Positions 1,104 through 26,518 of a stretch of DNA of 64,000 bases are shown in pieces. Every line of letters begins with the position of its first letter. Position 1 is the first letter of the stretch. The notes under the pieces were generated by a model. The model saw only the letters and a program-made list of their open reading frames with translations, ran no database searches and was not told where the DNA came from. The position numbers and the translations under genes were made by a program. This DNA is from an uncultured Gammaproteobacteria bacterium (GTDB lineage: Bacteria; Patescibacteriota; Microgenomatia; Levybacterales; UBA12049), in NCBI GenBank assembly GCA_964424775.1, contig CAYRJZ010000002.1, positions 73,736 to 137,735 of the forward strand, read 5' to 3'.

Positions 1104-1685
1104 ATGAAAACACGCAAAGGCAAAATAAACAAAAATATCGATTTAATTTTATCTGAAATTGAGTCAGTTCTTGCCCAGGTTGACCAAGAGCAAGTTGATC
1201 TCTTTGTTAAAGAAATTAAAAAAGCAAAGACTATAGTTTTATGTGGCGCAGGTAGAGTAGGTATGGCAACGAGAGGTTTTGCAATGAGACTGGGTCATAT
1301 GGGTTTTCGCTCATTTATGATCGGGGATGCCACTGTTCCATCGATTAAAAGAGGTGATTTGCTTATTGCATCTTCTGGATCAGGTGAGACTCAGACGATA
1401 TATGATTTAGTTGCGCTTGCGAAGAAAAATGGATCAAGAGTGGCATTAGTATCAAGTTATGTCGATCATAATAAATCGCGAATGGCTCGACTTGCTGATA
1501 CTATGGTAATACTAAATGCACCATCTAAAGTAAAACATATAGATGGATTTTATTCGCAGCAACCAATGACTACGCTCAATGAGCAATGTCTCGGGATTTT
1601 TTATGATGCTGTAGTTCTGCAATTAATGGAAGAATTAAAAGAATCTCATGAAAATATGTGGTCAAGGCATTCAAATCTTGAATAA
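1104..1685 (+). CDS. Single-SIS-domain sugar-phosphate isomerase, 6-phospho-3-hexuloisomerase (PHI/HxlB)-like
   Basis: About 190 aa. LCGAGRVGMATRGFAMRLGHMGF...IGDATVPSI...DLLIASSGSGETQT closely matches the PHI/SIS signature (GAGRSG...FAMRLMHLG...DLLIAISGSGET). Confidence 0.6.
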   Translation: MKTRKGKINKNIDLILSEIESVLAQVDQEQVDLFVKEIKKAKTIVLCGAGRVGMATRGFAMRLGHMGFRSFMIGDATVPSIKRGDLLIASSGSGETQTIYDLVALAKKNGSRVALVSSYVDHNKSRMARLADTMVILNAPSKVKHIDGFYSQQPMTTLNEQCLGIFYDAVVLQLMEELKESHENMWSRHSNLE

Positions 1686-1687
1686 AT

Positions 1688-2380
1688 ATGGTAAAAAGAA
1701 AGAATACGTTTAAACTTGCTGCTTCACTAATTTGTGGTAATTATTTATCACTTCAGGAGGATATCAGCTCGCTTATTCGAGGTAAGATCGATTATATTCA
1801 TTTTGATGTAATGGATGGAGTATTTGTACCAAGATACGGACTATTCCCAGAAATAATAACTCAAATGAGACAACAAACAGCAATTCCTATTGATATGCAT
1901 ATGATGGTATCAAATCCAGAAGCTTATATTAAGACATTTGTTGACGCTGGGGCCAATCAGAAAGATGATATTTATGTAGTACACGCTGAATCTACTGTGC
2001 ACTTGGATAGGATAATACGACGTATTCATGATCATGGGATAAAAGCAGGAGTCGCACTTAATCCTGCAACTCCTTTAGAGATTTTAAAGTATGTTTTAAA
2101 TGATATAGATCTTATCATGCTAATGGCAATTAACCCAGGTATAGTTGGTCATAAATTAATTCCTCATATGTTAAATAAAATTAAAGATGTGAAGCAAATG
2201 GTAGGGAATAGGGATATTCTTATTGAAGTAGATGGTGGAGTTAATTTTGAAAGTGCACCCCAGATGATAAAAAATGGTGCAAATATGTTAGTCTGTGGTA
2301 CTCAGACAATTTATAGACCTCACGAAGCTCCAATTGACAAGAAAATAAAAGAACTCAGGAAATTGCTAGATGCATCTTAG
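1688..2380 (+). CDS. Ribulose-phosphate 3-epimerase family protein (Rpe/AlsE-like TIM barrel)
   Basis: IHFDVMDGVFVP (the RPE H-x-D-x-MDG-x-FVP metal site), DMHMMV, GVALNPATPLE, IMLMAINPG and ILIEVDGGVN are all present. Confidence 0.7.
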   Translation: MVKRKNTFKLAASLICGNYLSLQEDISSLIRGKIDYIHFDVMDGVFVPRYGLFPEIITQMRQQTAIPIDMHMMVSNPEAYIKTFVDAGANQKDDIYVVHAESTVHLDRIIRRIHDHGIKAGVALNPATPLEILKYVLNDIDLIMLMAINPGIVGHKLIPHMLNKIKDVKQMVGNRDILIEVDGGVNFESAPQMIKNGANMLVCGTQTIYRPHEAPIDKKIKELRKLLDAS

Positions 2381-3084
2381 TGTAGTCTGCTGAAGGCATT
2401 ATCAAGAGATGTTAGGTTCCCTGTATCTACCCATTCTTTAAATACAACACTTTTGAATTTATACCCCTCTTTTATCATTTCTGAAATTGCTACACAATCA
2501 TTGAGCGAGGTATCCGAAGGATTATTACGATAGGATTTATTCAAGTACTCCCAAAACGCCTTATAATCTTTAACTCCGACAAGTCCAATATGTAAGTAAT
2601 TCCAATTATTTGAACCTTTTCCGTTAAGTTCAATAACATCTTCACCATTTGTCATTACTGAACTGTAACTTTGTGTGTTGAAAATTGACTGATCATTGCC
2701 TTCTGAAACCCCGTCCCAATTATACTCTTCAGGAGAAGGGATGCTCCCATTAATAATAGTATCGTTACAGTGGAATATGAATGGACACTGAAGGAAATCT
2801 TGTGCTTGAAGCATCGAGTATCCAAGAGATGATCCTAGACCTTCATATTTATCAATTTCGACAAAAGTTATATCACGTTCAGGATACATTTGTGATATAT
2901 ATTCCCGTACCTTATCTCCATAATAACCAATTGTAATAACTAGCTCTATCTCAGATGAATAAGAAGTAATTATATAATCGATAACTTTTTTTCCGTTTAT
3001 TTCGATGAGAGCTTTATTAGTATCCTTGGTCAATTCTTTAAGTCTTGATCCAGTACCTGATGTTGTTATGAGTACTTTGTACAT
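2377..3084 (-). CDS. Sugar/alcohol-phosphate nucleotidyltransferase (LicC-like GT-A fold NT), paralog of the N-domain of 3167..4756
   Basis: N-terminal ITTSGTGSRL (G-x-G-[ST]-R-L NTP-transferase motif). It shares long conserved blocks with the next gene: FVEIDKYEGLGSSLGYSML and LHIGLVGVKDYKAFW. Confidence 0.55.
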   Translation of the reverse strand: MYKVLITTSGTGSRLKELTKDTNKALIEINGKKVIDYIITSYSSEIELVITIGYYGDKVREYISQMYPERDITFVEIDKYEGLGSSLGYSMLQAQDFLQCPFIFHCNDTIINGSIPSPEEYNWDGVSEGNDQSIFNTQSYSSVMTNGEDVIELNGKGSNNWNYLHIGLVGVKDYKAFWEYLNKSYRNNPSDTSLNDCVAISEMIKEGYKFKSVVFKEWVDTGNLTSLDNAFSRLH

Positions 3085-3166
3085 TTTATAAATTTCCCTT
3101 GTAATGCTCTACTAATTATTATATAGTAAGATAAAATAGAGAACAAACGTTATATTCTCAATCTAA

Positions 3167-4756
3167 ATGAAAAATACCTCTAATTTAGTATTAATAACTG
3201 CCTCAGGGTCAAGTACCGGGCTTGGAGAGTTAACTAAGTATACAAATAAAACACTTATTCGAGTAGGTGATAAGCCAACTATTTCTCACATTATTGAAAG
3301 TTATCCTAAATCAGCACATTTTGTTATTACGTTAGGCTATTACGCCAAACAAGTTAAAGACTTCTTAACTTTAGCATATCCAAAACACCTTTTTACCTTT
3401 GTTGAGGTAGATAAGTATGAAGGGAAAGGAAGTAGTATGGGATATAGCATGTTGAAAGCATCTAAACATTTACAGCAGCCTTTTATATTTCATGCGTCTG
3501 ACACAATTGTCCACGATCAAATCCCTAAAGTTATAAGTAATTGGATTGGAGGCTATCGTGGTGAAGGGTCATCAAATTATACGTCTTTTAATATTCTCAA
3601 TAATAAAATTCAGAAGATTTTAGAGAAGGGAATAATCAATCCTGATTTTCTACATATAGGATTAGTTGGTGTTTATGATTATAAAAAGTTCTGGAAAACA
3701 CTTAATGATCTTTATGAAAAAAATACCTATGGAGATGCTTTGTCTGACTTTCATGCACTCAATCATATGATTGAAGATGGGGTTGATTTTAAAGTAAAAG
3801 AGATAACTCGGTGGTGGGATGTCGGAAATATTGATTCACTTAAAAAAACACGACAAGATTTTAAAAACCCCTTTAATGTTCTCGATAAACCAAGGGAATC
3901 GATTTTTATATTTAACGACTCAGTTATTAAGTTTTTTCATGATGAGTCAATGGTAAGGCAAAGAGTAAAGAGAGCAGAAAATCTTAAAGGATTAGTTCCA
4001 AAAATTAAAAAGTCATTAGGAAATTTTTATATCTATAACTATATTGATGGAGACTTATATGCAGATGTTGCAACTCCAGCTAACTTTTCAGACTTCCTGT
4101 TATGGTCTAAAAAAAATCTATGGAAGAGAGTACATGAGACATCTGTGAATAAATTTAAAAATATCTGCTATGACTTTTATTTTACAAAAACACAGGAAAG
4201 AATAGCAGAATTTCTCCTTACCCGTAATATGAAAGATACTGAGATCATAATAAATGACGAAAAGGTACCTTCATTCAAAGATATGTTAAAACAAATCGAT
4301 TTTGATTGGCTCTCAACGACTGATCAATCTCGATTTCACGGAGATTATATTCTCGACAATATTATAAAGACGAAAAAAGGGTATGTATTAGTTGACTGGA
4401 GACAAAATTTTGGTGGACTAACTCATGCTGGAGATATGTATTATGATCTTGCAAAACTAAATCATAACCTAACAATAAATCACGGTATAGTGAGTAAAGA
4501 ACTATTTACAATAAATGTTGGGACGCATAACGTCTATGTTGATATACATAGAAAAGAAACTTTAGTAGAATGTCAAAAGGTATTGTTTAAGTTTCTTGAT
4601 GAGAATAAATTGGATAAAAAAAAAGTTAAAATGTTAACTGCAATTGCATGGTTGAACATGTCACCTCTTCATGAACATCCATATGATACTTTCTTATATT
4701 ATTTTGGAAAGTTACAGTTATGGAGAGCAATAAAAGAAGTAAGCGATGAAAATTAA
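3167..4756 (+). CDS. Bifunctional protein: N-terminal nucleotidyltransferase (LicC-like) fused to a C-terminal aminoglycoside/choline-kinase-fold kinase
   Basis: The N-domain (ITASGSSTGLG, FVEVDKYEGKGSSMGYSML) is paralogous to 2377..3084. The C-domain carries the Brenner catalytic loop (FHGDYILDNII) and VLVDWRQNFGG, the Mg-binding D of the APH/ChoK fold. Confidence 0.55.
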   Translation: MKNTSNLVLITASGSSTGLGELTKYTNKTLIRVGDKPTISHIIESYPKSAHFVITLGYYAKQVKDFLTLAYPKHLFTFVEVDKYEGKGSSMGYSMLKASKHLQQPFIFHASDTIVHDQIPKVISNWIGGYRGEGSSNYTSFNILNNKIQKILEKGIINPDFLHIGLVGVYDYKKFWKTLNDLYEKNTYGDALSDFHALNHMIEDGVDFKVKEITRWWDVGNIDSLKKTRQDFKNPFNVLDKPRESIFIFNDSVIKFFHDESMVRQRVKRAENLKGLVPKIKKSLGNFYIYNYIDGDLYADVATPANFSDFLLWSKKNLWKRVHETSVNKFKNICYDFYFTKTQERIAEFLLTRNMKDTEIIINDEKVPSFKDMLKQIDFDWLSTTDQSRFHGDYILDNIIKTKKGYVLVDWRQNFGGLTHAGDMYYDLAKLNHNLTINHGIVSKELFTINVGTHNVYVDIHRKETLVECQKVLFKFLDENKLDKKKVKMLTAIAWLNMSPLHEHPYDTFLYYFGKLQLWRAIKEVSDEN

Positions 4757-5270
4757 GAATTTTATAATAGACGTTGATGGCGTTTTTACTGATGGGACTT
4801 TTTATTACACGGAACAAGGAAAGATAATGAAGAAGTTTGGACCGGAAGACGCAGATGCTCTTTCATTATTAAAGAATAAGATGAATATTCATGTTGTATC
4901 TGGAGATAAAAGAGGTTTTGCAATTACAAAAAAACGAATTCAAGATGATATGAAATTAAAATTAGATCTTGTAAGTACATTCGAAAGAATAGAATGGCTC
5001 TCTCAGTTATATGATCCAAAAGAGTCTATATACATGGGAGATGGAATTTTTGATCCTCTTGTTTTTAAAAAAGTAGCCTACAGTATTGCTCCTGCAAATG
5101 CATTCTACACGACAAAGAAAGAAGCTGATTATGTGACAAATGCAAAAGGAGGGGAAGGTGCAGTTGCAGAGGCTGTACTCCACATACTAGATAACATTCT
5201 AAAAGAACCTTTTGATGTTCACTCTCTTACATTTGCACACGGCTCTGGAGCATGGAGTAAATCAAAATGA
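4746..5270 (+). CDS. HAD-superfamily sugar-phosphate phosphatase, KdsC (Kdo-8-P phosphatase) family
   Basis: IIDVDGVFTDG matches the KdsC N-terminal DxDGVxTDG motif. About 170 aa with YMGDGIFD (second HAD Asp motif). Confidence 0.65.
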   Translation: MKIKNFIIDVDGVFTDGTFYYTEQGKIMKKFGPEDADALSLLKNKMNIHVVSGDKRGFAITKKRIQDDMKLKLDLVSTFERIEWLSQLYDPKESIYMGDGIFDPLVFKKVAYSIAPANAFYTTKKEADYVTNAKGGEGAVAEAVLHILDNILKEPFDVHSLTFAHGSGAWSKSK

Positions 5271-6403
5271 AAATTAATTATATAGATCGAAATCATAACG
5301 TAATAACACAAGAAAATACTCTCGAAAAACTATATGTATTTAATAATTTTCCAATTTATATTGGATGTACAGATAAACCTCAGAGTGAGGATGTTACGGC
5401 AGATCTTTCATTGGCAATCTGTCAAAAAACAGGAGTAATGCAATTAGATAAAGTACTTCCACTTGAAGTTGTATATGGAGACTATCATTCTGAAGCACTT
5501 GGCCCACTTTGGAATGAACATCACTTAAGTTTTGTTGAGTTCCTTATTAAATATAATTCAAAAAATATACTTGAAATAGGTGGGTCTAATGGTTTTATTG
5601 CTAAGGAATCTGTGAAGAAAAATAAAAATATTAATAAATGGATTATGGTAGAACCTGCTCCTGCATATGGAGGAGATTCTAAGATTGAGGTAATTGAAAA
5701 AAGTTTTGACGAGAATTTTATTTATGATGGAAAAGTTGATTGTATAGTTCATTCACATACATTCGAACATATTTATGAGCCTGGATTATTTATGAATAGT
5801 ATAGGTAGATATATGAAAATAGGTGATTTTCAAATATTTTCAGTTCCAAATTTATATAAATATTTACTAAATAAGCAAGCGAACTGGATAAATTTTGAAC
5901 ACACAGTTTTTTTAACTGAATATTACATTGATTTTCTACTTAACAAAAATGGTTTAGAAATATTAGAAAAAAAATATTTCTATGAACACAGTATTTTCTA
6001 CGCAACCAAAAAAATTAGAAATGAAGATAAATCAGTTACCATAACAAATAAGTATAAAGAAAATAAGAAGCTCTTTAATGACTACATTAACTTCTATAAA
6101 CATGAAGTAGCTAAGTATAATGATCAGATCAAAAAATTCTCTGGCAAAATTTATCTTTTCGGAGCACATATATTCTCTCAGTTTCTTGTTCTTAACGGAT
6201 TGACTGGGAATATCATTGGTGTTCTTGATAACTCCAAAATTAAAAAAGGTAAAAGACTCTATGGCACATCACTTACTGTTTTTGCTCCAGATGTGATTAA
6301 AGACGAAAAAGACGTGATGGTTATTCTTAAAGCAGGAGCTTATCAGAAAGAAGTGAAGGATCAACTATTATCATTAAATCCACGTGTAATTATTCTTGAG
6401 TAA
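5267..6403 (+). CDS. Class I SAM-dependent methyltransferase with extra N- and C-terminal domains
   Basis: ILEIGGSNGFIAKE (motif I, GxGxG), then an acidic beta-strand (IMVEP) and DCIVHSHTFEHI. Confidence 0.45.
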   Translation: MKINYIDRNHNVITQENTLEKLYVFNNFPIYIGCTDKPQSEDVTADLSLAICQKTGVMQLDKVLPLEVVYGDYHSEALGPLWNEHHLSFVEFLIKYNSKNILEIGGSNGFIAKESVKKNKNINKWIMVEPAPAYGGDSKIEVIEKSFDENFIYDGKVDCIVHSHTFEHIYEPGLFMNSIGRYMKIGDFQIFSVPNLYKYLLNKQANWINFEHTVFLTEYYIDFLLNKNGLEILEKKYFYEHSIFYATKKIRNEDKSVTITNKYKENKKLFNDYINFYKHEVAKYNDQIKKFSGKIYLFGAHIFSQFLVLNGLTGNIIGVLDNSKIKKGKRLYGTSLTVFAPDVIKDEKDVMVILKAGAYQKEVKDQLLSLNPRVIILE

Positions 6404-7667
6404 TATGAGAATAATTTTTCACAATCCTCATTCGAGTCTTGTCATAGGAAAAACACTTCTTGACTTCATATTAAGGATACACAGTTATAAAAAGTATTCT
6501 TATTTATTAGATTATATTCGACAAAGCAGAAATGATTTTGCTTTTTATATAGATAATCATGATTCATCACTTCCGTCTATTGCTGCAAGAATAATTCCGG
6601 CAAAGGTTGAGGTGTATCTGTGGATGATAGTAAATAAAATAAACCCACTTAAAGTAAAACTAGTTTGGAATATTGATGAACTGAAGAAAGATGATATCTT
6701 TTTTTCTTTCTCTTTGAAAAACCTCGATACAAATTACAGTGGAACTGATAATATTTTTAATAAAAAGTTTTTAAAAATATTTCATATAACTCACTTTGTT
6801 CAAAACACCTCACTCATCGCTGAAAATGCAAAAAGACTACAAATTAATTTTTTTGTAGCTGAAAATAACTTATCTAAAAACTCAAAATATTTTAAAAAAT
6901 ATTTATCTTTTTATAAGAAAGATGTTTACACCCTACCTTTTGTTGCACAGAAAAGATTTAAAAAGATAAATAATTTTAATAATAGGATTAACAAATGTCT
7001 GGCTACCGGAACTGTTGTAAATATTACTAAAACAGGCAATCCAAGTGATTTTAAGGACTTTCGAAAGTTCTATAAGACAGACGTACTCCAACCAATTCGA
7101 AATGAGATACTTCAAAAAAAAGATGAACTAAAAGACATTATCGACTGCTCAATTGGAGAACTATATGAAAAAGAATTAAAAAGGACGTCATCTAAGAATT
7201 TATTGCAAAAACTTTTTGCTAAATTGTATAACGCGCTTTTTGCCACAAAGAGATCTTATTTTAAATTTGATATTGTTGAGAGATATAATTCATATAAAAT
7301 GTTTATAAATGGTGAAGAGATAAATGATTTGCCGGGGATAGGTTTTGTTGAGGGAATGGCATGTGGAGCTGCTTATATTGGACAGATAAGTGATATGTAC
7401 ACAGACCTTGGACTAGTACCTGGTGTCCATTATATTGGATATAATGGAACTCTGAATGATTTGAAAAGAAAAATAAGATATTATCAAACACATTCAAAAA
7501 AGCTCGAAAAAATCGCTGAAGCTGGACATGCATTTGTTATCAATAATTTTACAGAAAAAAGCGTAGCTAGGAAATTTTTCTCTGATCTTAAGGATCTTTC
7601 TGAACAGTATAAAAAAAAGAAATACAAGACTGATCAATTAGAATTTAAGTGTTCATTTGTAAAGTAA
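6396..7667 (+). CDS. Hypothetical protein, possible degenerate GT-B glycosyltransferase
   Basis: C-terminal GIGFVEGMACGAAYIG resembles the GT1/GT4 EX7E-region (EGFGLxxLEAMACGxPVI). The N-terminal half is very K/N-rich and unassignable. Confidence 0.3.
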   Translation: MSNMRIIFHNPHSSLVIGKTLLDFILRIHSYKKYSYLLDYIRQSRNDFAFYIDNHDSSLPSIAARIIPAKVEVYLWMIVNKINPLKVKLVWNIDELKKDDIFFSFSLKNLDTNYSGTDNIFNKKFLKIFHITHFVQNTSLIAENAKRLQINFFVAENNLSKNSKYFKKYLSFYKKDVYTLPFVAQKRFKKINNFNNRINKCLATGTVVNITKTGNPSDFKDFRKFYKTDVLQPIRNEILQKKDELKDIIDCSIGELYEKELKRTSSKNLLQKLFAKLYNALFATKRSYFKFDIVERYNSYKMFINGEEINDLPGIGFVEGMACGAAYIGQISDMYTDLGLVPGVHYIGYNGTLNDLKRKIRYYQTHSKKLEKIAEAGHAFVINNFTEKSVARKFFSDLKDLSEQYKKKKYKTDQLEFKCSFVK

Positions 7668-8245
7668 TGATAAAAAATATTCTTTCATTAATTTCATATT
7701 ATCAAAGTAAAAAAGGCTTTTCTTCTTTTGGTAAAAAATCACTTATCAAATTCCCGTATAAAATATGGGGTAGAGATCGTATTTCTATTGGAGAAAATGT
7801 ATTTATTGCAGAAAATTCATATTTTGCTGTCTCCAAAAAATTTAAAAATCAAAAATTTTCTCCCACTATATCCATTGGAAATAATACATGCATTGGTAGT
7901 AATTTTTTTCTTGCATCTATAGATGAAATTGTTATTGAAGATGATGTATTAATATCAGATCGAGTTTTCATATCTGATCATATCCATAATTATGAAGATA
8001 TTAAAACTCCCATTATCGAACAACCATTAAAGAAAAAAGGGAAAGTATTAATAAAAAAGGGAAGCTTTATTGGAGTGAATGCTGTTATTATGCCTGGGGT
8101 AACTATTGGGAAAAATAGTGTTATTGGTGCATCAAGTGTTGTTATTAAAGATGTTCCTGACTTCGCTGTTGCTACTGGTAATCCAGCAAGAATTATTAAG
8201 AAATATTCCCAAAAATCAAAAACGTGGGTAAAAGAAAAGAAATAA
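7667..8245 (+). CDS. Hexapeptide-repeat (LbH) sugar O-acetyltransferase
   Basis: Tandem hexapeptide repeats (ISIGENVFIAENSYF...ISIGNNTCIGSNFF...IGVNAVIMPGVTIGKNSVIGASSVV) and a maltose/galactoside acetyltransferase-like C-terminus. The start was moved from the GTG at 7649 to the ATG at 7667, which overlaps the upstream stop (TAATG). Confidence 0.6.
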   Translation: MIKNILSLISYYQSKKGFSSFGKKSLIKFPYKIWGRDRISIGENVFIAENSYFAVSKKFKNQKFSPTISIGNNTCIGSNFFLASIDEIVIEDDVLISDRVFISDHIHNYEDIKTPIIEQPLKKKGKVLIKKGSFIGVNAVIMPGVTIGKNSVIGASSVVIKDVPDFAVATGNPARIIKKYSQKSKTWVKEKK

Positions 8246-8246
8246 A

Positions 8247-8966
8247 ATGTTGAATTATACTCCTTATATATTAAAAGAAATTAAAAAAATTAATAAAAAA
8301 GATCAAAGTGTACTAGATGTTGGGTGTGGTATTGGACAGTATTTCCCATACTTAAAAGGGAAAATAACAGGTTTTGATTTTGATAAAAAAAATGTTGAGA
8401 GAGCGAAAAAAAAGTTTCCTGAAGCTAAAGTATTTCATTTTGATTTAACAAAAAGACCACTACCTGGTTTGAAAAAATATGATGTCGTAATTTGTCTTGA
8501 GGTCGTCGAACATATGAAGAAAAGAGATGCTCTCTTATTAATAAAAGAATTAGAGAAAAAGACAAATGGTTACCTTCTTATCTCTACACCCAATATAAAT
8601 AACTTTACATCTCTTCTCCGTTTTCTTATGACGCGAAAGGTGGAAATAGCAGGTGAGGCAAACGTAGTTGAAAAAATTTTATACTTTATTTTAAATAGAA
8701 AATTTCCACCAAAAAATAATAAATATTACGTCATGGAATCTGATAGTCCTGATCTCATCTCCAATAAAAGCCTTCATTATCATGTGTCAAATTTCAGTTC
8801 AGGAGATTTCAAAAAAATGGGTTATAGAGTAGTAGGAGGACTTGGGCAAGTTAACTACGACATTATCGGAAATCAAATGCTAAAAAATTTTATTGAAAAG
8901 ATATTTTATTATTTCCCATATTTGGCTGGTTCATTTTTAGCAATTAAAGAAATTCGCACGAAATAG
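8247..8966 (+). CDS. Class I SAM-dependent methyltransferase
   Basis: VLDVGCGIGQY (motif I), DVVICLEVVEHM (motif II/III region). Confidence 0.6.
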   Translation: MLNYTPYILKEIKKINKKDQSVLDVGCGIGQYFPYLKGKITGFDFDKKNVERAKKKFPEAKVFHFDLTKRPLPGLKKYDVVICLEVVEHMKKRDALLLIKELEKKTNGYLLISTPNINNFTSLLRFLMTRKVEIAGEANVVEKILYFILNRKFPPKNNKYYVMESDSPDLISNKSLHYHVSNFSSGDFKKMGYRVVGGLGQVNYDIIGNQMLKNFIEKIFYYFPYLAGSFLAIKEIRTK

Positions 8967-9010
8967 TTTACTGTTGTGTTTGAAAAAGAAATATATGCTT
9001 AAATTTATAT

Positions 9011-11131
9011 ATGGTAAATAGAAAGAAAAATGAAATTATTTCCTTAGTACTATTGCTCATAGTAGGTATCATTGTTTATCATAGATGGCTGAATATATCT
9101 GCATTTGCTTTTGGAGATTGGGGATTTGGATTTAGAGAAGTTTATTCAGAGATAATATTTCCATATACAGGTGGTGTTTTTGGTCCAAATATTCTTCTTT
9201 GGAAATATCCATTTTTCTTAATAAATGGGTTAGTAAGTCTTTTAGGTTTTAACTCAAATGTTATTGAGAAAGTTATTGTTTTCTGGCCAATTATTCTACT
9301 TACACCAATTAGTGGGTTTCTAATAGTTAAAAAAATTACTCGTTCAAATACAGCTGGGGTAATAGGATCACTTATTTTCTCGTATAACACTTATTTTCTC
9401 TCAATTAGTACTCAAGGCCATCTTCTTTTACCACTTGCATATGCATGGGGTGCATTTGCATGTATAACTTTTATTAATTTGTTAGAAAATAAAAAACTTA
9501 TTTGGCTACCAATAACTGCACTGCTTCTTTTTGTTGTTGGAGCTACAGACTTGAGAAGTCTCTACGTCATTTCAATGATTCTCTGTCTTTATGCACTTTA
9601 CCATCAACTCTTTATTGAAAGAAAAATTAAGGAAAATTTCTTTAAAAATATTTTAAGGTGTTTTTCTGTCTTTTTTATCTTATTTTTGTTAAATATTTTT
9701 TGGATTCTACCTGCAATTACTATTCAAAATTTAACATCTGGTGCTGTTTTTTATAGTGAATTGTTTGGCGGTGAATTTTATAACATTCAAAATGCTATCT
9801 CATTCTTCTATCCTTTTTGGACTGGCAAAGAAACAGCATGGTTGCAGCTCCAAGAAATACCATTGTCATTTTGGTTGTTCCCATTGGTAGCGTTCTCAGG
9901 GCTCTTAGTAGGAAGACGAAATAAAAAAATTGTCTTCTTTGGTCTTATTGCACTTTTTGGCATTTTCTTATCCAAACAAGAATCCCAGCCATTCCCACAG
10001 GTTTATCCATGGCTTTTCCAACATATTCCAGGTTTTGCTGCATTTCGTGAGGCAAGCAAATTTAACTTTTTAATCGTGTTAGGTTATGCAGTTCTTTTTG
10101 CAAGTTTTTCACTCTTTATTAAAAACTATTTTAAGGAGAAAAAATACTTAGCGAGTATAATTATTTTCTTTTTGGCATTGTTGCCTCTTTGGAATACTAT
10201 ACCTTTTATAACAGGAGAAATAAAATCTCTTTATATTCCAAAGACAGTCCCTGAAGATTTTATAAAACTTAGTAATTATTTTAAGAAAGAGAATAACTTT
10301 CAAAGAGTATTTGCCATTAATAATAATATTTACTGGTTATATTCAACTTCAAATCATCCAGTCACCGATGCGGTTGGATCTGTGAGAAATTATTGGGCTG
10401 AAACAAAAATGTATGATGTTGAGTCAGATATGACTGAGGGAAAACGCATTACCCTTTTCCTTACATCAGATTCAGGACGACGATTACTTTCAAATGCGTC
10501 AGTTGGACATCTTGTTGTAAACATAAAAGATGTAGAAACAAACAGTAATGTTAGACGAGATTTTGGAGAAAATAGAGAATTTTTCGAAAAGTCATTTGAT
10601 AAAGTAAATTTTTTGGAAAAGAAAGATATCGGACTTAAAAATACTCTTCTTTATGAAAATAAACAGGTACGACCACTTATCTACTTAACTCAAGAAAAAG
10701 AGAGTTTGAAGAAAGATATTCCATTTGAACGTGTTCAATTTACAACAATTAATCCAACTGAACACCGTATCTCAATTATGAATTTAAGAAACCCTATGTA
10801 TCTCAATTTTGCTGGACTTTATCATCCAGACTGGAAGTTAAGAGTAGGCAGCTTTCATTGGAAAGATGCAGTAGGAAACAAATCATATTTCATTGAGAGT
10901 AAATTTCATCAAAAAAATGAAGTTCTTCAAAATACTTTTTTACTTGACCCAGAGTATTTAAAAAAGAATGATGATGCTGACATAACTGTAAATGAAGACG
11001 GATCAATAAATATGATATTCACGCTCTTTTTTAGACCACAAGCTTATTTATATCTGGGACTCCTTATAAGCACGACTGTATTTGTCTTATCGTTATTCTC
11101 AATCGTTATTCTATTTAAATGGAAAAAATAA
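9011..11131 (+). CDS. Polytopic membrane protein with a large C-terminal extracytoplasmic domain, GT-C-like (YfhO/ArnT/PMT-type)
   Basis: About 12 predicted TM helices over the first roughly 400 aa, a roughly 250 aa soluble domain, then a C-terminal TM. This architecture is typical of GT-C glycosyltransferases that use polyprenyl-phosphate sugars. Confidence 0.4.
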   Translation: MVNRKKNEIISLVLLLIVGIIVYHRWLNISAFAFGDWGFGFREVYSEIIFPYTGGVFGPNILLWKYPFFLINGLVSLLGFNSNVIEKVIVFWPIILLTPISGFLIVKKITRSNTAGVIGSLIFSYNTYFLSISTQGHLLLPLAYAWGAFACITFINLLENKKLIWLPITALLLFVVGATDLRSLYVISMILCLYALYHQLFIERKIKENFFKNILRCFSVFFILFLLNIFWILPAITIQNLTSGAVFYSELFGGEFYNIQNAISFFYPFWTGKETAWLQLQEIPLSFWLFPLVAFSGLLVGRRNKKIVFFGLIALFGIFLSKQESQPFPQVYPWLFQHIPGFAAFREASKFNFLIVLGYAVLFASFSLFIKNYFKEKKYLASIIIFFLALLPLWNTIPFITGEIKSLYIPKTVPEDFIKLSNYFKKENNFQRVFAINNNIYWLYSTSNHPVTDAVGSVRNYWAETKMYDVESDMTEGKRITLFLTSDSGRRLLSNASVGHLVVNIKDVETNSNVRRDFGENREFFEKSFDKVNFLEKKDIGLKNTLLYENKQVRPLIYLTQEKESLKKDIPFERVQFTTINPTEHRISIMNLRNPMYLNFAGLYHPDWKLRVGSFHWKDAVGNKSYFIESKFHQKNEVLQNTFLLDPEYLKKNDDADITVNEDGSINMIFTLFFRPQAYLYLGLLISTTVFVLSLFSIVILFKWKK

Positions 11132-12009
11132 GAAATATTATTTTTATTCTCACAGTGTTGGGTATGATTATCGTACTAACAATTATCACTTTGCTTCAAA
11201 GTGATAATTTGACTGGGTTTTCAATTTTTTATCCAAATGACGTGATAATTACATACCCAAGGGGTGAACTCTATAAGGATCAATCAATAAAACTCGATCT
11301 CAATGTAAATGAGAACTATCTTGGACAGGTAGCAGTACGATTTTATAATTATGATCGAATAAACGAGGACTCCGTACTCTTTAGAATTAGGGAAAAAGGC
11401 TCGAAGTCATGGTATTACGAGCATATCTATAAAACTGACCAGTTCCAGCCACATCACTTATTTCCATTTGGATTTCCGGTCATTCATAATTCAAGGGATA
11501 AGCAGTATCAAATTGAGATAATTTCCCAGAGCGGGAAGCCTGATGATGCAGTTACTTTAAGCTCCCATCAGCCTAAAGTCACAAGTGCACATCAATATCC
11601 CAAACAAGAGCTGTTATCAAATCCATCATTACTGATAGAATTTGTCGTAAATAAGGTAAAGTATAGTCATGTCAGTCTTGATACCTTTATTTCATTTGGG
11701 AAATATGTCCACATAATTACGTTATCTACGGTATTTCTTTATCTTTTCATTAATAGTGTAATAGTCAAGTTTTCTCAATTTCGACAGAATTTAAGTACTG
11801 TGATGCTCATTAGTGGACTTGTGTTGCTGATGAGCGGCGCTCTTCTCCACTATGTCCACCTATTTTCGGTTTCATCGATACTTATTATCACCTCTTATTT
11901 CCTTTTTCTTATGAGTACAGTACTATTTCTTATAGAGAATAAGAAAAATGAAGGCGAGAAGAGGCCATCAATGCGTGAGAAAGTTGTTCGTAAAAGGAAA
12001 AAAGTATGA
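11119..12009 (+). CDS. Hypothetical membrane protein (N-terminal signal anchor, soluble domain, C-terminal TM bundle)
   Basis: Hydrophobicity pattern only. Confidence 0.35.
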   Translation: MEKIRNIIFILTVLGMIIVLTIITLLQSDNLTGFSIFYPNDVIITYPRGELYKDQSIKLDLNVNENYLGQVAVRFYNYDRINEDSVLFRIREKGSKSWYYEHIYKTDQFQPHHLFPFGFPVIHNSRDKQYQIEIISQSGKPDDAVTLSSHQPKVTSAHQYPKQELLSNPSLLIEFVVNKVKYSHVSLDTFISFGKYVHIITLSTVFLYLFINSVIVKFSQFRQNLSTVMLISGLVLLMSGALLHYVHLFSVSSILIITSYFLFLMSTVLFLIENKKNEGEKRPSMREKVVRKRKKV

Positions 12010-13589
12010 GAATTCTTTCAAAAAGACAGAATCTTTTTTTAGTTATAGTTTTACTTCTGATTATTGTAACTCTTTCACTGCTTCTTCGAATTCATTCCTT
12101 TAGTGGTGGTAATTTTTATTTTCTTTTAGACCAGGCAAGAGATATGACTCTTGTTAAAGAGATAGTAGAAAATAGAGATATCACTCTTATTGGTGCCAGG
12201 TCAGGAATAGGGGGAATATTTCATGGCCCACTCTGGCTTTATTTACTTGTTCCAACGTTTGTTTTGAGTGGAGGAAATCCTTATTTTACTCTTGTTCCCA
12301 TTTTTATTCTTTTAACAGTGATTCTAGTTTTGTCCGGATTTTATATTGGATGGAAATTATATGGAGCAAAATATGGACTACTTATAGCTCTTTTCCTTGG
12401 AATTTCCTCTTCTTTTATTGAAAGTATGGCTAATTTTTCTAATGCCCATGTTATGCCACTGATTTTTCTCTTCTTTCTTTACACACTCATACGCTATCTC
12501 AGAGGATATGAAAAAGCTCTCATTGGTAGTGCGTTCTTGATTGGTATTGGTATTCATTTCGAAGCTGCCTTTGCAATTTTTTTAATACCGATTACACTTC
12601 TTACTTTTGTATGGAAGAGAAAATTTCCTCAAATGAAGACCTTATTTAAAAGCACAGTCGTATTTTTCATTACTGTAATAAATTATGTTCTTTTTGAGTT
12701 GAAAAATGGCTTTATTATGACTCGTGCAGCTCTGAATTTAATACTTGGTCATTCAGGTCCAATGGAAGGGTATGAGCAGTATTCAGATGTGTTTTTCAGA
12801 ATAAATGATAGGGTAAGTGTCTTTGTTAATTCTTTTTTTACGCCTTTATTCACACAAACTCAATTAAGTAAAGTGTTGCTGATAATTATTATTATTTCTT
12901 CTTTTGTTTTTACTCTTATACATTTGAAGAAAAAGAAAAGAGAAAAAGATAATTCAGAGTTTTTGTTTCTTCTCCTCATACCTCTAATTATTTCAGCGTT
13001 ATTAGTGATATATCCACATCCTATTTGGCCTCATTATATCCTTCCTTTAGTAATTTCATCAGTGTTTCTATTAGTTTTAGGAATGAAAATCATATCTAAG
13101 CATAAGTTGGGTCATTATTATTCTTGGTTCGCACTTTTAATATTCCTTATCCCAACACTTGGATGGATAGACAATACATATATAAAAGGATACTCTGTGC
13201 CATTATCAAATGGGGCTACATTTCAAAAACAATTAGAAGTTGTAGACTGGGTATTGAATGACGCGGGAAATGAGAAGTTTGGGTATCTTGCTTATACACC
13301 TCAAGTTTTGACATATAACATGGATTATTTAATGTGGTGGAGAAGTAGAGATAAAGGTGTATCACATTATGTCAATAACAAAGAAAGAATTACCTATCTT
13401 CTTCTTCTTCCTCCAAAAGAAGGAGACCTCAAAGCTCATGATTTCTGGAAGAAAAATGTGATACGGACTAATGGGAAAGTGATTGAACGAAAAGTATTTA
13501 GCACAGGTCTTATGGTTGAAAAACTCGAAATTTCCAAGCAAGAACCTCCTGTTGAGTCAACATATTTCCACGGTGCACTCTTCCGATAA
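12006..13589 (+). CDS. GT-C family membrane glycosyltransferase (ArnT/PMT-like)
   Basis: N-terminal TM, then the first-loop acidic motif (LLDQARDM) before a run of about 12 TM helices. The C-terminal soluble domain and layout match the ArnT/PMT_2 family. Confidence 0.45.
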   Translation: MRILSKRQNLFLVIVLLLIIVTLSLLLRIHSFSGGNFYFLLDQARDMTLVKEIVENRDITLIGARSGIGGIFHGPLWLYLLVPTFVLSGGNPYFTLVPIFILLTVILVLSGFYIGWKLYGAKYGLLIALFLGISSSFIESMANFSNAHVMPLIFLFFLYTLIRYLRGYEKALIGSAFLIGIGIHFEAAFAIFLIPITLLTFVWKRKFPQMKTLFKSTVVFFITVINYVLFELKNGFIMTRAALNLILGHSGPMEGYEQYSDVFFRINDRVSVFVNSFFTPLFTQTQLSKVLLIIIIISSFVFTLIHLKKKKREKDNSEFLFLLLIPLIISALLVIYPHPIWPHYILPLVISSVFLLVLGMKIISKHKLGHYYSWFALLIFLIPTLGWIDNTYIKGYSVPLSNGATFQKQLEVVDWVLNDAGNEKFGYLAYTPQVLTYNMDYLMWWRSRDKGVSHYVNNKERITYLLLLPPKEGDLKAHDFWKKNVIRTNGKVIERKVFSTGLMVEKLEISKQEPPVESTYFHGALFR

Positions 13590-14565: not shown

Positions 14566-15099
14566 ATGAGAATTGGTATTGATATTTCCCAACTTGCATA
14601 TAGTAATACTGGTGTTGCTAATCTTCTTAAAAATCTCGTGAACACACTTACAGAAGAAGGGAAAAACCATGAGTTTATACTGTTCTATTCTTCTCTTAGA
14701 AGACCTTTTAATAATGAGTGGATAATAAGCCGTCCTAATGTTTCCATAAAGCAATTCAAACTTCCTCCTTCTCTTTTAGATCTATTATGGAATAGGCTTC
14801 ATATTCTTCCAGTTGAGTATTTTATTGGAGAAGTTGATTTGTTTATATCATCGGATTGGACTGAGCCACCAACTAAAAATGCTCAAAAAGTTACTATTCT
14901 TTACGACCTTGTTGTACTGAAGTACCCTCAGGAAAGTACAGAAAAAATTGTGGATACTCAAAAGAGAAAATTGCACTGGGTGCAAAAAGAGACAGAGAAG
15001 ATACTCTGCATTTCTGAATCTACCCTACATGATGCAAGAGAACTCCTCCATATCCAACCCGATAAATTATCTGTTGTTTACCCCGGATTAACTGCTTAG
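14566..15099 (+). pseudogene. Truncated GT4 glycosyltransferase, N-terminal domain only (177 aa); likely remnant of a paralog
   Basis: MRIGIDISQLAYSNTGVANLL aligns with the N-termini of the full-length GT4s at 15139 and 22577 (M.FGIDA...GV, MKVGIDARFWNETGVGRY). It ends before any GT-B C-domain. Confidence 0.4.
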
Positions 15100-15138
15100 T
15101 TTATTTCTTGAGCGGGATAAATAGACTATACTAAAAAT

Positions 15139-16269
15139 ATGATATTTGGAATTGATGCAAATGAAGCAAATGTTGAGAGAAAAGTCGGTGTGAGTGAGTA
15201 TTCTTTTGAATTACTTCGTCAGTTCAATGAGTTATCTCCTGAAGAATCTGAGTGGCAGATATATCTAAAAAATTCACCAAGAGATGAATTCCCAAAAGAA
15301 AGAAGAAATTGGAAATATAACGTCTTTGGTCCAACAAAGTTGTGGACACAAATTGCTCTCCCCTTGATGCTATATAGACAAAAGAACAAACCAGATGTCT
15401 TTTTCTCTCCAGGTCATTATGCTCCTCGATTTAGTCCAGTTCCACGGGTAATCTCGATTATGGACTTAGCTTTTTTTCATTTTCCTGAATACTTTACCAA
15501 AAAAGACTTAATACAACTTCATAATTGGACGAAGTATTCTGTCAAGGCTGCAAAGAAAATTATCACCATAAGTGAGGCAACGAAGAATGATATAATCAAA
15601 TTGTACAGTGTTCCCGAGGAGAAAATAGAGGTCATTTATCCTGGAATAAAACACACTTTTTTAACATTAAAGAGTATGAGTAAAGCTGACATTCAAGAAA
15701 AATATGACATTTCCGACCACTATGTGCTTTTCGTTGGGACACTTCAGCCACGTAAAAATATTGAAAAGCTTATTGAAGCATTTGCTCTCGCAAAAAAATC
15801 TTTAGTGGATACCTGTCAAGGTCTCCAACTTGTCATTGTAGGGAAAAAAGGGTGGCAATTTGAATCTATTTTATCTGCACCACAGCGTTTTAATGTTGAG
15901 GAGAGCGTTAAATTTCTTGATTTTGTTCCTGATGATGATCTTGCAGCTCTCTATAAAAATGCCCAACTTTTTGCATTTCCGAGTCTTTATGAAGGGTTTG
16001 GATTGCCAGTGCTTGAAGCTATGAGGTATGGTTGTCCAGTTCTGACAAGTAATATTAGTTCATTGCCTGAAGCTGGCGGAGACGCTGCATATTACATCAA
16101 TCCAAATGACGCAAAAGATATTGCACAAGGAATAGAGAAAATTATTTCTAACTCTAGGCTTCGTTCAGAGATGATAGAAAAGGGAAAAAAACAAATAGCT
16201 AAGTTCAGCTGGGAAAAAGCGGCAAAAGAAACACTTGCAGTCCTTGAAGAAGTAGGAAACAATAAGTAA
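15139..16269 (+). CDS. GT4 glycosyltransferase
   Basis: Complete GT-B: N-domain MIFGIDANE..., C-domain YVLFVGTLQPRKN...FAFPSLYEGFGLPVLEAMRYGCPVLTS (EX7E). Confidence 0.8.
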   Translation: MIFGIDANEANVERKVGVSEYSFELLRQFNELSPEESEWQIYLKNSPRDEFPKERRNWKYNVFGPTKLWTQIALPLMLYRQKNKPDVFFSPGHYAPRFSPVPRVISIMDLAFFHFPEYFTKKDLIQLHNWTKYSVKAAKKIITISEATKNDIIKLYSVPEEKIEVIYPGIKHTFLTLKSMSKADIQEKYDISDHYVLFVGTLQPRKNIEKLIEAFALAKKSLVDTCQGLQLVIVGKKGWQFESILSAPQRFNVEESVKFLDFVPDDDLAALYKNAQLFAFPSLYEGFGLPVLEAMRYGCPVLTSNISSLPEAGGDAAYYINPNDAKDIAQGIEKIISNSRLRSEMIEKGKKQIAKFSWEKAAKETLAVLEEVGNNK

Positions 16270-24764: not shown

Positions 24765-25847
24765 ATGAAAATTATTGTTTTTGCAGGAGGTGTTGGTTCT
24801 CGACTTTGGCCACTCTCACGAAAGAATACTCCAAAACAATTCGGGCAGATTATTGGTGAAGAATCAACGCTGCAATCAACAATAAATCGTCTCCTTCCTG
24901 AATTTAAAGCTGAAGATATCTATATTGCTACCGGAAAACAATACGCAAATGTTGTTCGTGAACAACTCCCGATGATTCCAGCAGAAAATTTTATACTTGA
25001 ACCAGCAACACGAGATGTAGGACCAGCAATTGGACTTAACGCTTTTTTGCTTGATAAAAAATTTAGTGATGAACCTATTGCGATATTGTGGAGCGATCAT
25101 ATGGTCAAAAATGAAGTTATGTTTCGTCATGTTTTACGACTTGCTGAGTCAAGTGTCCTCAACCACAATGGGAAATTTGTATTTATTGCACAAAAACCAC
25201 GTTTTGCAAATCAGAATTTAGGTTGGATTGAGCTTGGAGATAAGTTAAAAGAGGAAGAGGGAGCGGAAATCTATAGATTCCAAAGGCTTCGGTATAGACC
25301 AAAGCTTGAAGATGCACAGCTTTTCTTTAAAAATGCCTCCTTTGTCTGGAATTTGGGATATTTTGTAACTACTCCTCGAACTTTGGTAAATCTTTTTCAG
25401 GAGTATGCTCCAGACATGCATAACCAACTTATGGAAATTAGGGATGCGTGGGGAACTGATGCATATGAACAGAAGTTAGAAGAAATCTATCCTACACTTG
25501 AGAAAATCAGTTTTGACGATGCAATATTAGTAAAGATGACACCTGATGATGTCTATGTGATCGCAACTGATCTTGGGTGGAGTGATATTGGAGCGTGGGA
25601 TGCCCTCAAAGAAGCACTATCAGAAGAGAGTTCACAGAATATTACCAAAGGTAATGTTCTCCTTGAAGATACACAAGACACTCTTGCATTCAACTACACG
25701 AATCAATTAGCTGTTGGAATAGATTTAAGCGAGCTTCTCATAATTAACACTGAAGATGTTCTTCTTATTTGTCCAAAGCAGTCGGTACCTAAGATTAAGA
25801 AACTGGTCGAAAGTCTCTCTGGGACACCACTTGAGCATCTTGCTTAA
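24765..25847 (+). CDS. manC: Mannose-1-phosphate guanylyltransferase (GDP-mannose pyrophosphorylase); no PMI domain
   Basis: MKIIVFAGGVGSRLWPLSR.NTPKQF (the GG-x-G-x-RLWPLS signature of ManC/CpsB); 360 aa. Confidence 0.75.
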   Translation: MKIIVFAGGVGSRLWPLSRKNTPKQFGQIIGEESTLQSTINRLLPEFKAEDIYIATGKQYANVVREQLPMIPAENFILEPATRDVGPAIGLNAFLLDKKFSDEPIAILWSDHMVKNEVMFRHVLRLAESSVLNHNGKFVFIAQKPRFANQNLGWIELGDKLKEEEGAEIYRFQRLRYRPKLEDAQLFFKNASFVWNLGYFVTTPRTLVNLFQEYAPDMHNQLMEIRDAWGTDAYEQKLEEIYPTLEKISFDDAILVKMTPDDVYVIATDLGWSDIGAWDALKEALSEESSQNITKGNVLLEDTQDTLAFNYTNQLAVGIDLSELLIINTEDVLLICPKQSVPKIKKLVESLSGTPLEHLA

Positions 25848-25852
25848 CACCC

Positions 25853-26518
25853 ATGCCCTACAAAGAAATTAAAAAAAGTGAATACTACGAGATTGTAAAA
25901 CGCCTTCTGGATATTTTATTTGCATCAATACTTTTAATCATTTTTTCTCCAGTTATTTTGTTGGTAACTCTAGCAATCAAACTTAATTCACCAGGTCCAG
26001 TCCTCGCTGATACCCCTGAGCGGGTAGGGAAAAACGGCAAACCATTTAAAATGTTCAAATTTCGATCTATGATCCAAAATGCGCACACAATCCTTCGGGA
26101 AGATCCTGAATTTGCAAAGTTATATGAAATGTACAAACAAGGTAGTTATAAATTAAAAAATGATCCTCGTATAACAAGTGTTGGGAAAATTATTCGCAAA
26201 TTTTCTTTGGATGAAGTTCCACAATTATTCAATATATTGATAGGAGATATGAGTCTTGTTGGCCCACGTGCATATTATCCTGATGAACTTCGGGAGCAGC
26301 AAAAAAAATATCCTGAGACACAGGAGTCGGTAAAAATAGTACTTTCTGTCAAACCAGGTCTCACTGGCTTTTGGCAAGTTTCAGGAAGAAGTGAGATCAA
26401 CTTTGATAAGAGGATCGAGATGGATGCTGAGTACGTGAGAAAGCGTTCAATTGTGTATGATTTTTATATTATCGCACGTACACCATGGGCTATGATTTCA
26501 GGAAAAGGTGCACTCTAG
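25853..26518 (+). CDS. Small initiating phosphoglycosyltransferase (bacterial sugar transferase, PglC/WbaP C-domain type)
   Basis: One N-terminal re-entrant helix, [25 protein letters not shown] and [11 protein letters not shown], which are the PF02397 signatures. Confidence 0.8.

Follow-up and report, generated by a model that had tools for sequence, protein, structure and literature searches.

When two related nucleotidyltransferase (NT) genes stand side by side and one of them is fused to a kinase, which of the two performs the nucleotidyl transfer, and why is the other retained? This question is raised by a 64,000-nucleotide stretch of contig CAYRJZ010000002.1 (hereafter the window, meaning this whole stretch), in which a free-standing NT gene (open reading frame, ORF, A) and an NT-kinase fusion gene (ORF B) are transcribed divergently. 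The answer that we favor as probable, judged from sequence conservation, is that A is the working NT and B a kinase whose NT-like domain is catalytically dead, both being old paralogues in a cassette for a rare nucleotide sugar of a cell-surface glycan. The pair itself is an ordinary kind of arrangement, an NT paralogue pair together with a kinase-NT fusion, in an uncharacterised, very widespread cassette.

The free-standing gene and the fused gene

The features on which the comparison depends are located in the window as follows.

2377..3084, minus strand: ORF A, free-standing LicC-like NT, 235 residues, proposed catalytically competent copy
3040..3060, minus strand: intact GXGXR nucleotide-binding loop of A, S9-G-T-G-S-R-L15 in the translation
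3085..3166: intergenic region between ORF A and ORF B, 82 bp, divergent, candidate for two promoters
3167..4756, plus strand: ORF B, NT-kinase fusion, 529 residues
3167..3871, plus strand: N-terminal NT-like domain of ORF B, residues 1–235, proposed pseudo-nucleotidyltransferase
3203..3223, plus strand: degenerate loop of B, S13-G-S-S-T-G-L19 (family consensus S-G-x-G-S-R-L)
3872..4756, plus strand: C-terminal APH/choline-kinase-type domain of ORF B, residues 236–529
4337..4360, plus strand: kinase catalytic loop HGDYILDN (HGDxxxxN), residues 391–398
4394–4399, plus strand: D410-W411 of the kinase domain

An original prediction made from the DNA alone described head-to-head genes separated by an 82-bp gap and quoted four shared peptides, all of which were located in the translations, as were the HGDxxxxN and D-W motifs of the kinase fused to the plus-strand copy. 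Its claim of paralogy also held, since a BLASTP alignment of A (residues 4–227) with the N-terminal part of B (residues 8–225) covered the whole NT domain and extended beyond the quoted motifs, giving 103 identities in 224 positions (46%), 61% positives, and 6 gaps with E = 1e-59. The best DNA match between the two ORFs was 44 nt with 75% complementarity. Recent gene conversion between A and B was also sought at the DNA level, and none was seen.

ORF A scored 32.5 bits against the Pfam model PF00483 (NTP_transferase), above the gathering threshold of 21.2, and its AlphaFold2 model showed a predicted local distance difference test (pLDDT) value of 95.8. The best fold matches detected by Foldseek were inositol-1-phosphate cytidylyltransferase (IPCT, 4jd0) and LicC (1jyk), with template-modelling (TM) scores of 0.81–0.83. 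MurU and PntC were matched as well, and the scores across IPCT, LicC, and MurU ranged from 0.75 to 0.83. The GXGXR motif is the canonical nucleotide-binding signature of the sugar-NT fold (PMC6981941), and it is present in A as G-T-G-S-R. Both G12 and R14 (A numbering) are invariant in the free-standing NT family, and G-x-G-S-R is retained in every free-standing copy examined. The loop Arg was kept in 62 of 62 aligned stand-alone NT-like ORFs, 11 of which were afterwards recognised as truncated or NT-SIS fusions, and in 48 of 48 ORFs of the set retained later.

ORF B fell narrowly below the Pfam cut-offs for both of its domains (APH PF01636, 21.5 versus 23.2; NTP_transferase, 16.2 versus 21.2), and its AlphaFold model showed a pLDDT of 91.4. 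The kinase domain was undetected by a sequence-only search of the PDB and was recognised by fold comparison as an APH fold, for which no single kinase subfamily stood out. H391-G-D393-x4-N398 and D410, which correspond to the APH catalytic loop and the downstream metal-binding Asp, are invariant in 35 fusions. The GXGXR signature is absent from the NT-like domain of B, where the corresponding residues are G-S-S-T-G.

The comparison of pocket residues suggested by the original prediction was also performed. When positions conserved at 90% or more in both the free-standing NTs and the Arg-keeping fusions were taken as the reference, 28 positions were obtained, of which A keeps 28 and B keeps 24, the deviations of B being K7L, G16S, R18G, and P122V. 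D112 and D218 stand at 100% in all groups, and K28 is present in A and B; by homology, these would be the metal-site aspartates and the lysine that follows the loop, respectively. One option offered by that prediction was that one copy is a pseudo-enzyme, and the fused copy, devoid of the GXGXR loop, looks like it.

The roles could in principle be reversed: A would be the accessory or regulatory subunit, and B the working bifunctional enzyme despite its non-canonical loop. A is indeed optional and absent from most loci, and accessory NT paralogues are known, GMPPA being an example. Regulatory paralogues, however, are those in which catalytic motifs are lost, and the loser here is B, while the complete set of conserved positions is kept by A and GXGSR by all free-standing copies. 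We judge such a reversal very unlikely.

Loop loss in fusions beside a second nucleotidyltransferase

The state of the loop was examined in 80 genome loci containing the fusion and 80 metagenome loci containing the free-standing NT, in which ORFs were called and all NT domains were aligned. The distinct fusions were sorted by the loop Arg and by the presence of a second NT in the locus.

Arg kept, no second NT in the locus: 86 of 129 distinct fusions
Arg kept, second NT in the locus: 14 of 129 distinct fusions
Arg lost, no second NT in the locus: 5 of 129 distinct fusions
Arg lost, second NT in the locus: 24 of 129 distinct fusions

The loop Arg was kept in 86 of the 91 fusions without a nearby second NT and lost in 24 of the 38 with one. 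Four of the five Arg-less fusions without a second NT are explained by contig ends: the contigs of loci L009 and L011 start at the fusion, L159 contains a truncated short NT at the contig edge, and L092, a close relative of L043, carries a second NT 3.4 kb past the end of L043. When a flank of at least 5 kb was required on both sides, Arg-keeping fusions numbered 39 without and 7 with a second NT, and all 10 Arg-less fusions had one (Fisher p = 5e-7). On the kinase-domain tree, the Arg-less fusions are spread over approximately 14 distinct clades, and a second-NT locus is present in every one of these. The Arg has been lost about 14 times independently, and the association of this loss with a second NT is clear and recurrent.

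In the Arg-less fusions, conservation was 0.54 at K7, 0.73 at G16, 0 at R18, 0.73 at L19, and 0.58 at K28, with D112, D218, W216, G220, F106, and P105 staying at 1.0. By this measure, the relaxation is confined to the nucleotide loop. The conservation of the NT domain relative to the kinase domain was slightly lower in the Arg-less fusions, with a ratio of 0.92 versus 1.00. Three fusions have a total length of only 401–406 residues (L076:7719-8924, L077:6503-7723, and L161:6248-7468); their NT domain is eroding and in part deleted, the loop is unrecognisable, and a free-standing NT adjoins the fusion in all three. They resemble an advanced stage of this decay.

These data also bear on an alternative in which both NT domains are active, having diverged in nucleotide or sugar phosphate, with two activated products and the loop of B as an adaptation. 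It would be consistent with the 14 fusions that have an intact loop beside a second NT, and with B itself, whose NT domain is still conserved and retains K28, D112, D218, and most pocket positions. The residues replacing the Arg (K, Q, D, H, G, P, L, N, Y, and E), however, are chemically unrelated and differ between close relatives, which indicates relaxed constraint and not a new function. As GXGXR is canonical for this fold, and the NT domain is visibly eroding in the three lineages of short fusions, we regard two active domains as unlikely.

The preferred reading, an active A beside an inactive NT-like domain in B, can be pictured as follows. Where the fusion is the only such gene in a genome, its N-terminal domain must be the NT. 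Here, the free-standing A is present, and B has lost the loop Gly and Arg but preserves the fold, both putative metal-binding aspartates, and the remaining pocket. A simple account of why the decay is asymmetric is that a decayed free copy would be deleted, whereas a fused domain is not removable without risk to the kinase. The NT-like domain of B may be retained through structural dependence of the kinase, docking of A, or binding of the sugar phosphate or product. Retention of the sugar pocket and metal ligands suggests, by analogy with GMPPA/GMPPB, that it may still bind a ligand or dock A. The analysis thus shows the paralogy, the conserved cassette, and the loop loss with its association with a second NT, from which we infer the loss of activity, the division of labor, the order of the pathway, and the sugar.

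GMPPA is a non-catalytic paralogue that binds the product and regulates GMPPB (PMC11228364). In GMPPB/GMPPA, in the small and large subunits of plant ADP-glucose pyrophosphorylase, and in VTC1/KONJAC, a duplicated NT keeps the fold and pocket and loses the catalytic loop, while its paralogue remains active; GMPPA/GMPPB and VTC1-KJC2 were among the fold matches obtained here. The present case differs in that the decayed copy is a domain fused to a kinase, and that the decay is repeated, independent, and bacterial. It offers a clean evolutionary example in which a fused copy that is not deletable without harm to the kinase loses its loop repeatedly while the free copy stays intact. The sampled fusions further provide a natural series for the origin of a pseudo-enzyme, from both loops intact through loop lost to eroding domain, as well as a testable rule by which the active one of two NT genes could be annotated.

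Several observations weigh against this reading. The N-terminal domain of B is about 60% identical to its family consensus, versus 68% for the kinase domain, and it keeps K28 and both aspartates, so that some activity, residual or altered, may persist. In seven lineages, Lys stands in place of the Arg, and such loops might still function. Both loops are intact in 14 genomes, and a second NT alone hence does not imply decay. The fusion of L028 is Arg-less with no second NT within 4.4 kb. The loop statistics were obtained on related sequences, and the trees are neighbor-joining trees only. Regarding the proposed sugar substrate, the best fold matches, LicC, IPCT, and PntC, act on non-sugar phosphates.

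Age and direction of the duplication

The original prediction ascribed the pair to a recent duplication, after which the plus-strand copy gained about 280 residues. Neither part of this scenario was borne out. More than 2,200 homologues were found for ORF B, and the best 120 are all 520–546 residues long, 53–65% identical, and mostly from Patescibacteria. The family of ORF A consists of proteins of approximately 231–271 residues with 46–63% identity, among which the nearest free-standing orthologues show 57–63%. A is closer to the free-standing NTs of other genomes than to B (46%), which indicates that the duplication is not recent. The adjacency of the genes and the long conserved motifs that they have in common would suit a recent local duplication followed by gain of the kinase; such an origin is hardly credible given the 46% protein identity, the lack of any long DNA identity, and the separate orthologue families to which the copies belong at higher identity. 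The window pair also groups congruently with the pair of L006 in both subtrees (A/L006 and B/L006).

The direction of change was probably the reverse of that predicted. Among the groups sampled, namely the Candidate Phyla Radiation (CPR), DPANN, Bacteroidota, Chlamydiae, Proteobacteria, Spirochaetes, and Firmicutes, none lacked the fusion, and a free-standing copy was mostly absent. Identity of the free-standing NTs is 46% to the CPR-type fusion domains and 36% to distant fusions, and that between the two kinds of fusion is 37%. In rooted neighbor-joining trees, the free-standing NTs nest among the CPR-type fusions. Most likely, the gene was already fused when its NT domain was duplicated to give the free-standing copy; the fusion is probably the ancestral form, to which the free-standing copy is an optional extra. 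A tree of 95 sequences placed the free-standing NTs in one clade, and a larger tree, for which truncated fusions at contig ends had been removed from the short-NT set, gave two old clades (30 and 14 members) and one singleton. The number of duplications is hence put at one to three.

DPANN archaea (Nanoarchaeota, Woesearchaeota, Micrarchaeia, and Pacearchaeota; L039, L059, L075, and L080; P0195) also carry the fusion and, in one case, the free-standing NT, which suggests cassette transfer between episymbiotic bacteria and archaea. Cassettes of the CPR type, 54–62% identical to that of the window, were also found in the metagenome-assembled genomes of L006, L007, L010, L015, L018, L022, and L036, which are titled "uncultured Gammaproteobacteria" or "Bdellovibrionales"; the taxon labels of these genomes may be unreliable. 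Judged from its nearest relatives, the window would come from a bacterium of the CPR type.

The two genes lie on opposite strands in 6 of the 38 loci carrying both, and the head-to-head order with a short gap is common to the window, L006, and L087. In the 82-bp gap, to which the original prediction assigned a probable bidirectional promoter, sigma-70-like matches were located on the plus strand (TTGTAA-17-TATAGT at 3099–3127) and the minus strand (TTGAGA-17-TATTTT at 3161–3133), each agreeing at 9 of 12 positions, with no enrichment of such matches in the gap region over shuffled sequence. The TATAG element is partly common to the gaps of the window and L087. On its other side, ORF A converges with an Rpe-like gene on the plus strand, the stop of which overlaps that of ORF A by 4 bases (2377–2380), with no terminator-like site between them. 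Being inverted, ORF A breaks the common direction of the cassette, and a separate promoter is needed for B and the genes that follow.

The conserved cassette and its proposed pathway

The fusion belongs to a cassette of which the following further members were identified in the window.

1104..1685, plus strand: PHI-like SIS isomerase (NCBIfam TIGR03127 HxlB, 181.9 versus a cut-off of 160; PDB YckF 1m3s, 2e-30)
1688..2380, plus strand: Rpe-family ketose-phosphate 3-epimerase (Pfam Ribul_P_3_epim, E = 8.5e-61; TIGR01163, 208.1 versus 212.6)
4746..5270, plus strand: KdsC-like HAD phosphatase (TIGR01670, 79.6 bits, under the cut-off of 106.95)
5267..6403, plus strand: MT378, homologue of nucleoside diphosphate (NDP)-sugar 3-C-methyltransferases (profile of 26 orthologues)
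6396..7667, plus strand: X423, GT90/POGLUT-like putative transferase, a frequent cassette member (Glyco_trans_1_2, E = 1.4e-8; Glyco_transf_90, E = 1.2e-7)

In homologue contigs, the order is flippase, PHI-like SIS, Rpe-like, optional free-standing NT, NT-kinase fusion, KdsC-like HAD, the 375-residue methyltransferase MT378, and often the GT90-like protein. The part from SIS through Rpe, optional NT, fusion, and HAD to MT378 recurs in CPR, Bacteroidota, and DPANN loci, and the window has this set at 1104..7667. The KdsC-like HAD adjoins the fusion in most loci, and X423 recurs in many. The MT378 profile built from the 26 orthologues matched 4rv9 (TylC3-like D-mycarose 3-C-methyltransferase, 3.7e-11), TcaB9 (3ndi, 8.6e-10), and KijD1, the first two over positions 48–364; the match is near full-length and includes the family-specific C-terminal domain. 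The single MT378 sequence scored 22.7 versus 23.5 against Pfam Methyltransf_14.

The front end of the cassette varies. Among 166 loci, SIS and Rpe were found together in 74, a GatZ/KbaZ-like protein of the class-II-aldolase fold in 52 (for example, L073:5333-6544 and L114:6952-7965), and both in none. These mutually exclusive front ends suggest that one step underwent non-orthologous replacement. In E. coli, fructose-6-phosphate is 4-epimerised to tagatose-6-phosphate by GatZ and KbaZ (PMC11907403). The Rpe-like gene was also considered as a hexulose-phosphate synthase, which was rejected on scores of 208 bits on the rpe model versus 16–24 bits on models including hexulose-phosphate synthase. 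In Uhrbacteria (L046:835-2094, also L106–L109), the Rpe-like gene is preceded by one for a 419-residue protein in which an NT domain and the PHI-like SIS domain are joined. Its GTGSR loop is intact, its NK lysine is replaced by proline, and a normal NT-kinase fusion lies downstream. This NT-SIS fusion ties the NT to phosphosugar enzymes.

A pathway may be outlined from these genes by analogy with MupP-AmgK-MurU and the heptose pathway. A hexose or ketose 6-phosphate from central metabolism would be re-configured by the PHI-like isomerase and the Rpe-like epimerase, or by the single GatZ/KbaZ-like protein in other genomes. In a hypothetical scheme, PHI would convert fructose-6-phosphate into 3-hexulose-6-phosphate, which resembles ribulose-5-phosphate from the phosphate end; inversion at C4 by the Rpe-like enzyme, followed by a shift of the carbonyl back to C2 by PHI, would then give tagatose-6-phosphate, as from a GatZ-type 4-epimerase. 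C-methylation would follow, probably by the TcaB9/TylC3-like methyltransferase. The original phosphate would be removed by the KdsC-like phosphatase and a phosphate at a new position added by the kinase domain of B, which may precede or follow the phosphatase step. Finally, an NT would couple the sugar phosphate to a nucleoside monophosphate, with cytidine triphosphate as the likely donor in view of the LicC/IPCT/PntC-like fold.

Several known systems resemble this outline. FKP, the L-fucokinase/GDP-fucose pyrophosphorylase of Bacteroides, unites an N-terminal NT and a C-terminal sugar kinase in one polypeptide and makes an NDP-sugar; its kinase is of the GHMP type, and it is a salvage enzyme without the dedicated front end, phosphatase, or methyltransferase of the present cassette. 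In the route to GDP-D-glycero-D-manno-heptose, GmhA-HddA-GmhB-HddC, an SIS isomerase, a kinase, a HAD phosphatase, and an NT are encoded together as here, and HldE of the heptose pathways is likewise a bifunctional kinase-NT fusion. The heptose kinases, however, are of the GHMP or ribokinase type and not of the APH type, the SIS protein here is PHI-like and not GmhA, and the HddC model NF049965 gave 23.8 versus a cut-off of 300. MupP-AmgK-MurU comprises an N-acetylmuramic acid (MurNAc)-6-phosphate phosphatase, an APH-type anomeric sugar kinase, and a MurNAc-1-phosphate uridylyltransferase (PMC5371407). The three activities and folds (HAD phosphatase, APH-fold kinase, and small NT) are the same as here, with the phosphate moved from the 6-position to the activating position before nucleotidylation, and MurU is among the top fold matches of A. 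The MurU models scored 27.9 versus 370 (NF045697) and 25.9 versus 250 (NF045761) with A and gave no match with B. Unlike MupP-AmgK-MurU, the present cassette appears to be biosynthetic from central metabolites, includes isomerase/epimerase and methyltransferase steps, and has its kinase and NT fused.

LicC and LicA follow the same logic of kinase and then NT, and Treponema has a fused LicCA, in which the NT is N-terminal and the kinase C-terminal as here. This raises the alternative that a small alcohol such as choline, ethanolamine, or a polyol is activated by the fusion and phospho-transferred to a glycan, with another purpose for the adjacent sugar-phosphate enzymes. In its favor, some members are annotated as "choline kinase" by JGI, and the Aliiglaciecola locus includes a TagF-like phosphotransferase. 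Against it, identity to LicC/LicA is only 16–21%, phmmer matched LicC (1jyk) only at E = 2.8e-6 with A and 8.6e-4 with B, covering the first 90–110 residues, no NCBIfam equivalog was matched, and the fusion is almost universally linked to the phosphosugar front end and the KdsC-like phosphatase. The NT-SIS fusion protein and the sugar C-methyltransferase homologue in the core also speak against it. Among the neighbors scanned, no lic-type genes (choline transporter or LicD transferase) were found, the neighbors being sugar-phosphate enzymes, methyltransferases, and glycosyltransferases. A role of the LicA/LicC type is hence decidedly unlikely, and the context of phosphosugar isomerase/epimerase, KdsC-like, and sugar C-methyltransferase genes indicates that the substrate is probably a sugar, unlike that of LicC/LicA.

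A bolder proposal, which we hold only tentatively and find rather doubtful, is that the cassette encodes a new route to a nucleotide-activated, C-methyl-branched sugar derived from a ketohexose, starting directly from fructose-6-phosphate and not from an NDP-4-keto-6-deoxy sugar. Its front ends would be interchangeable, PHI with an Rpe-like enzyme acting on 3-hexulose-6-phosphate and the GatZ-like 4-epimerase both yielding one C4-epimerised ketose phosphate. In lineages that have a free-standing NT, the fused domain would now be a ligand-binding pseudo-enzyme that docks the active NT or regulates it and links it to the kinase, a recurrently evolved bacterial analogue of GMPPA/GMPPB. A literature search for a published account of such a pathway, with queries on PHI/NT/polysaccharide, anomeric kinase/NT/phosphatase, cytidylyltransferase/ketose/capsule, and NDP-tagatose, returned nothing relevant. 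Patescibacteria very commonly carry the NT-kinase fusion with its cassette, and no member of the more than 2,200 homologues, including those of DPANN, Bacteroidota, Chlamydiae, and Proteobacteria, has a characterised substrate or product. A conserved surface-sugar pathway would be a handle on the biology of organisms that depend on their surface for an attached lifestyle.

A cultured carrier could make the pathway experimentally accessible. This is the gammaproteobacterium Aliiglaciecola lipolytica E3 (L073, NZ_BAEN01000049.1), in which the core at 4807–13579 consists of HAD, GatZ-like, MT378, and an intact-loop fusion. Glycosyltransferase family 2 (GT2) genes, an asparagine-synthase-like gene, and a gene for a TagF-like glycerophosphotransferase lie beside this core, the last of which may hint at transfer of the product as a phosphodiester.

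Other loci contain SIS proteins with an extra N-terminal domain of approximately 290–400 residues (MLT[VI]FGN..WNEDH..) whose family was not recognised (L076:5570-7000, L146:1-1431, L161:4122-5543, L125:5892-7301, L165:5118-6533, and L116:5315-7072). In L076 and L161, the extended SIS and the eroding fused NT domain occur in the same locus.

Apart from the cassette, the initial 26 kb of the window are occupied by a glycan cluster with GT2, GT4, acetyltransferase, Wzy_C-like, PMT-like, ManC-like third NT, and Bac_transf priming transferase genes. This third NT (360 residues, NTP_transferase E = 6.5e-23) is unrelated to A and B, and together with the Bac_transf priming sugar transferase it ends the cluster at 24765–26518. 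Cell-wall and division genes (penicillin-binding protein, Mur ligases, MurA, GlmS, and FtsA) follow at 33–51 kb. An Rfam scan of the whole window for structured RNAs gave no match. Inside the glycan cluster, three consecutive large ORFs (706, 296, and 527 residues) at 9011–13589 have no Pfam match at E ≤ 1e-4. At 14566–16269, a complete GT4 gene of 376 residues comes 40 bases after a 177-residue ORF whose match is limited to the N-terminal GT4 domain, which may point to a split glycosyltransferase or a fragment of a gene.

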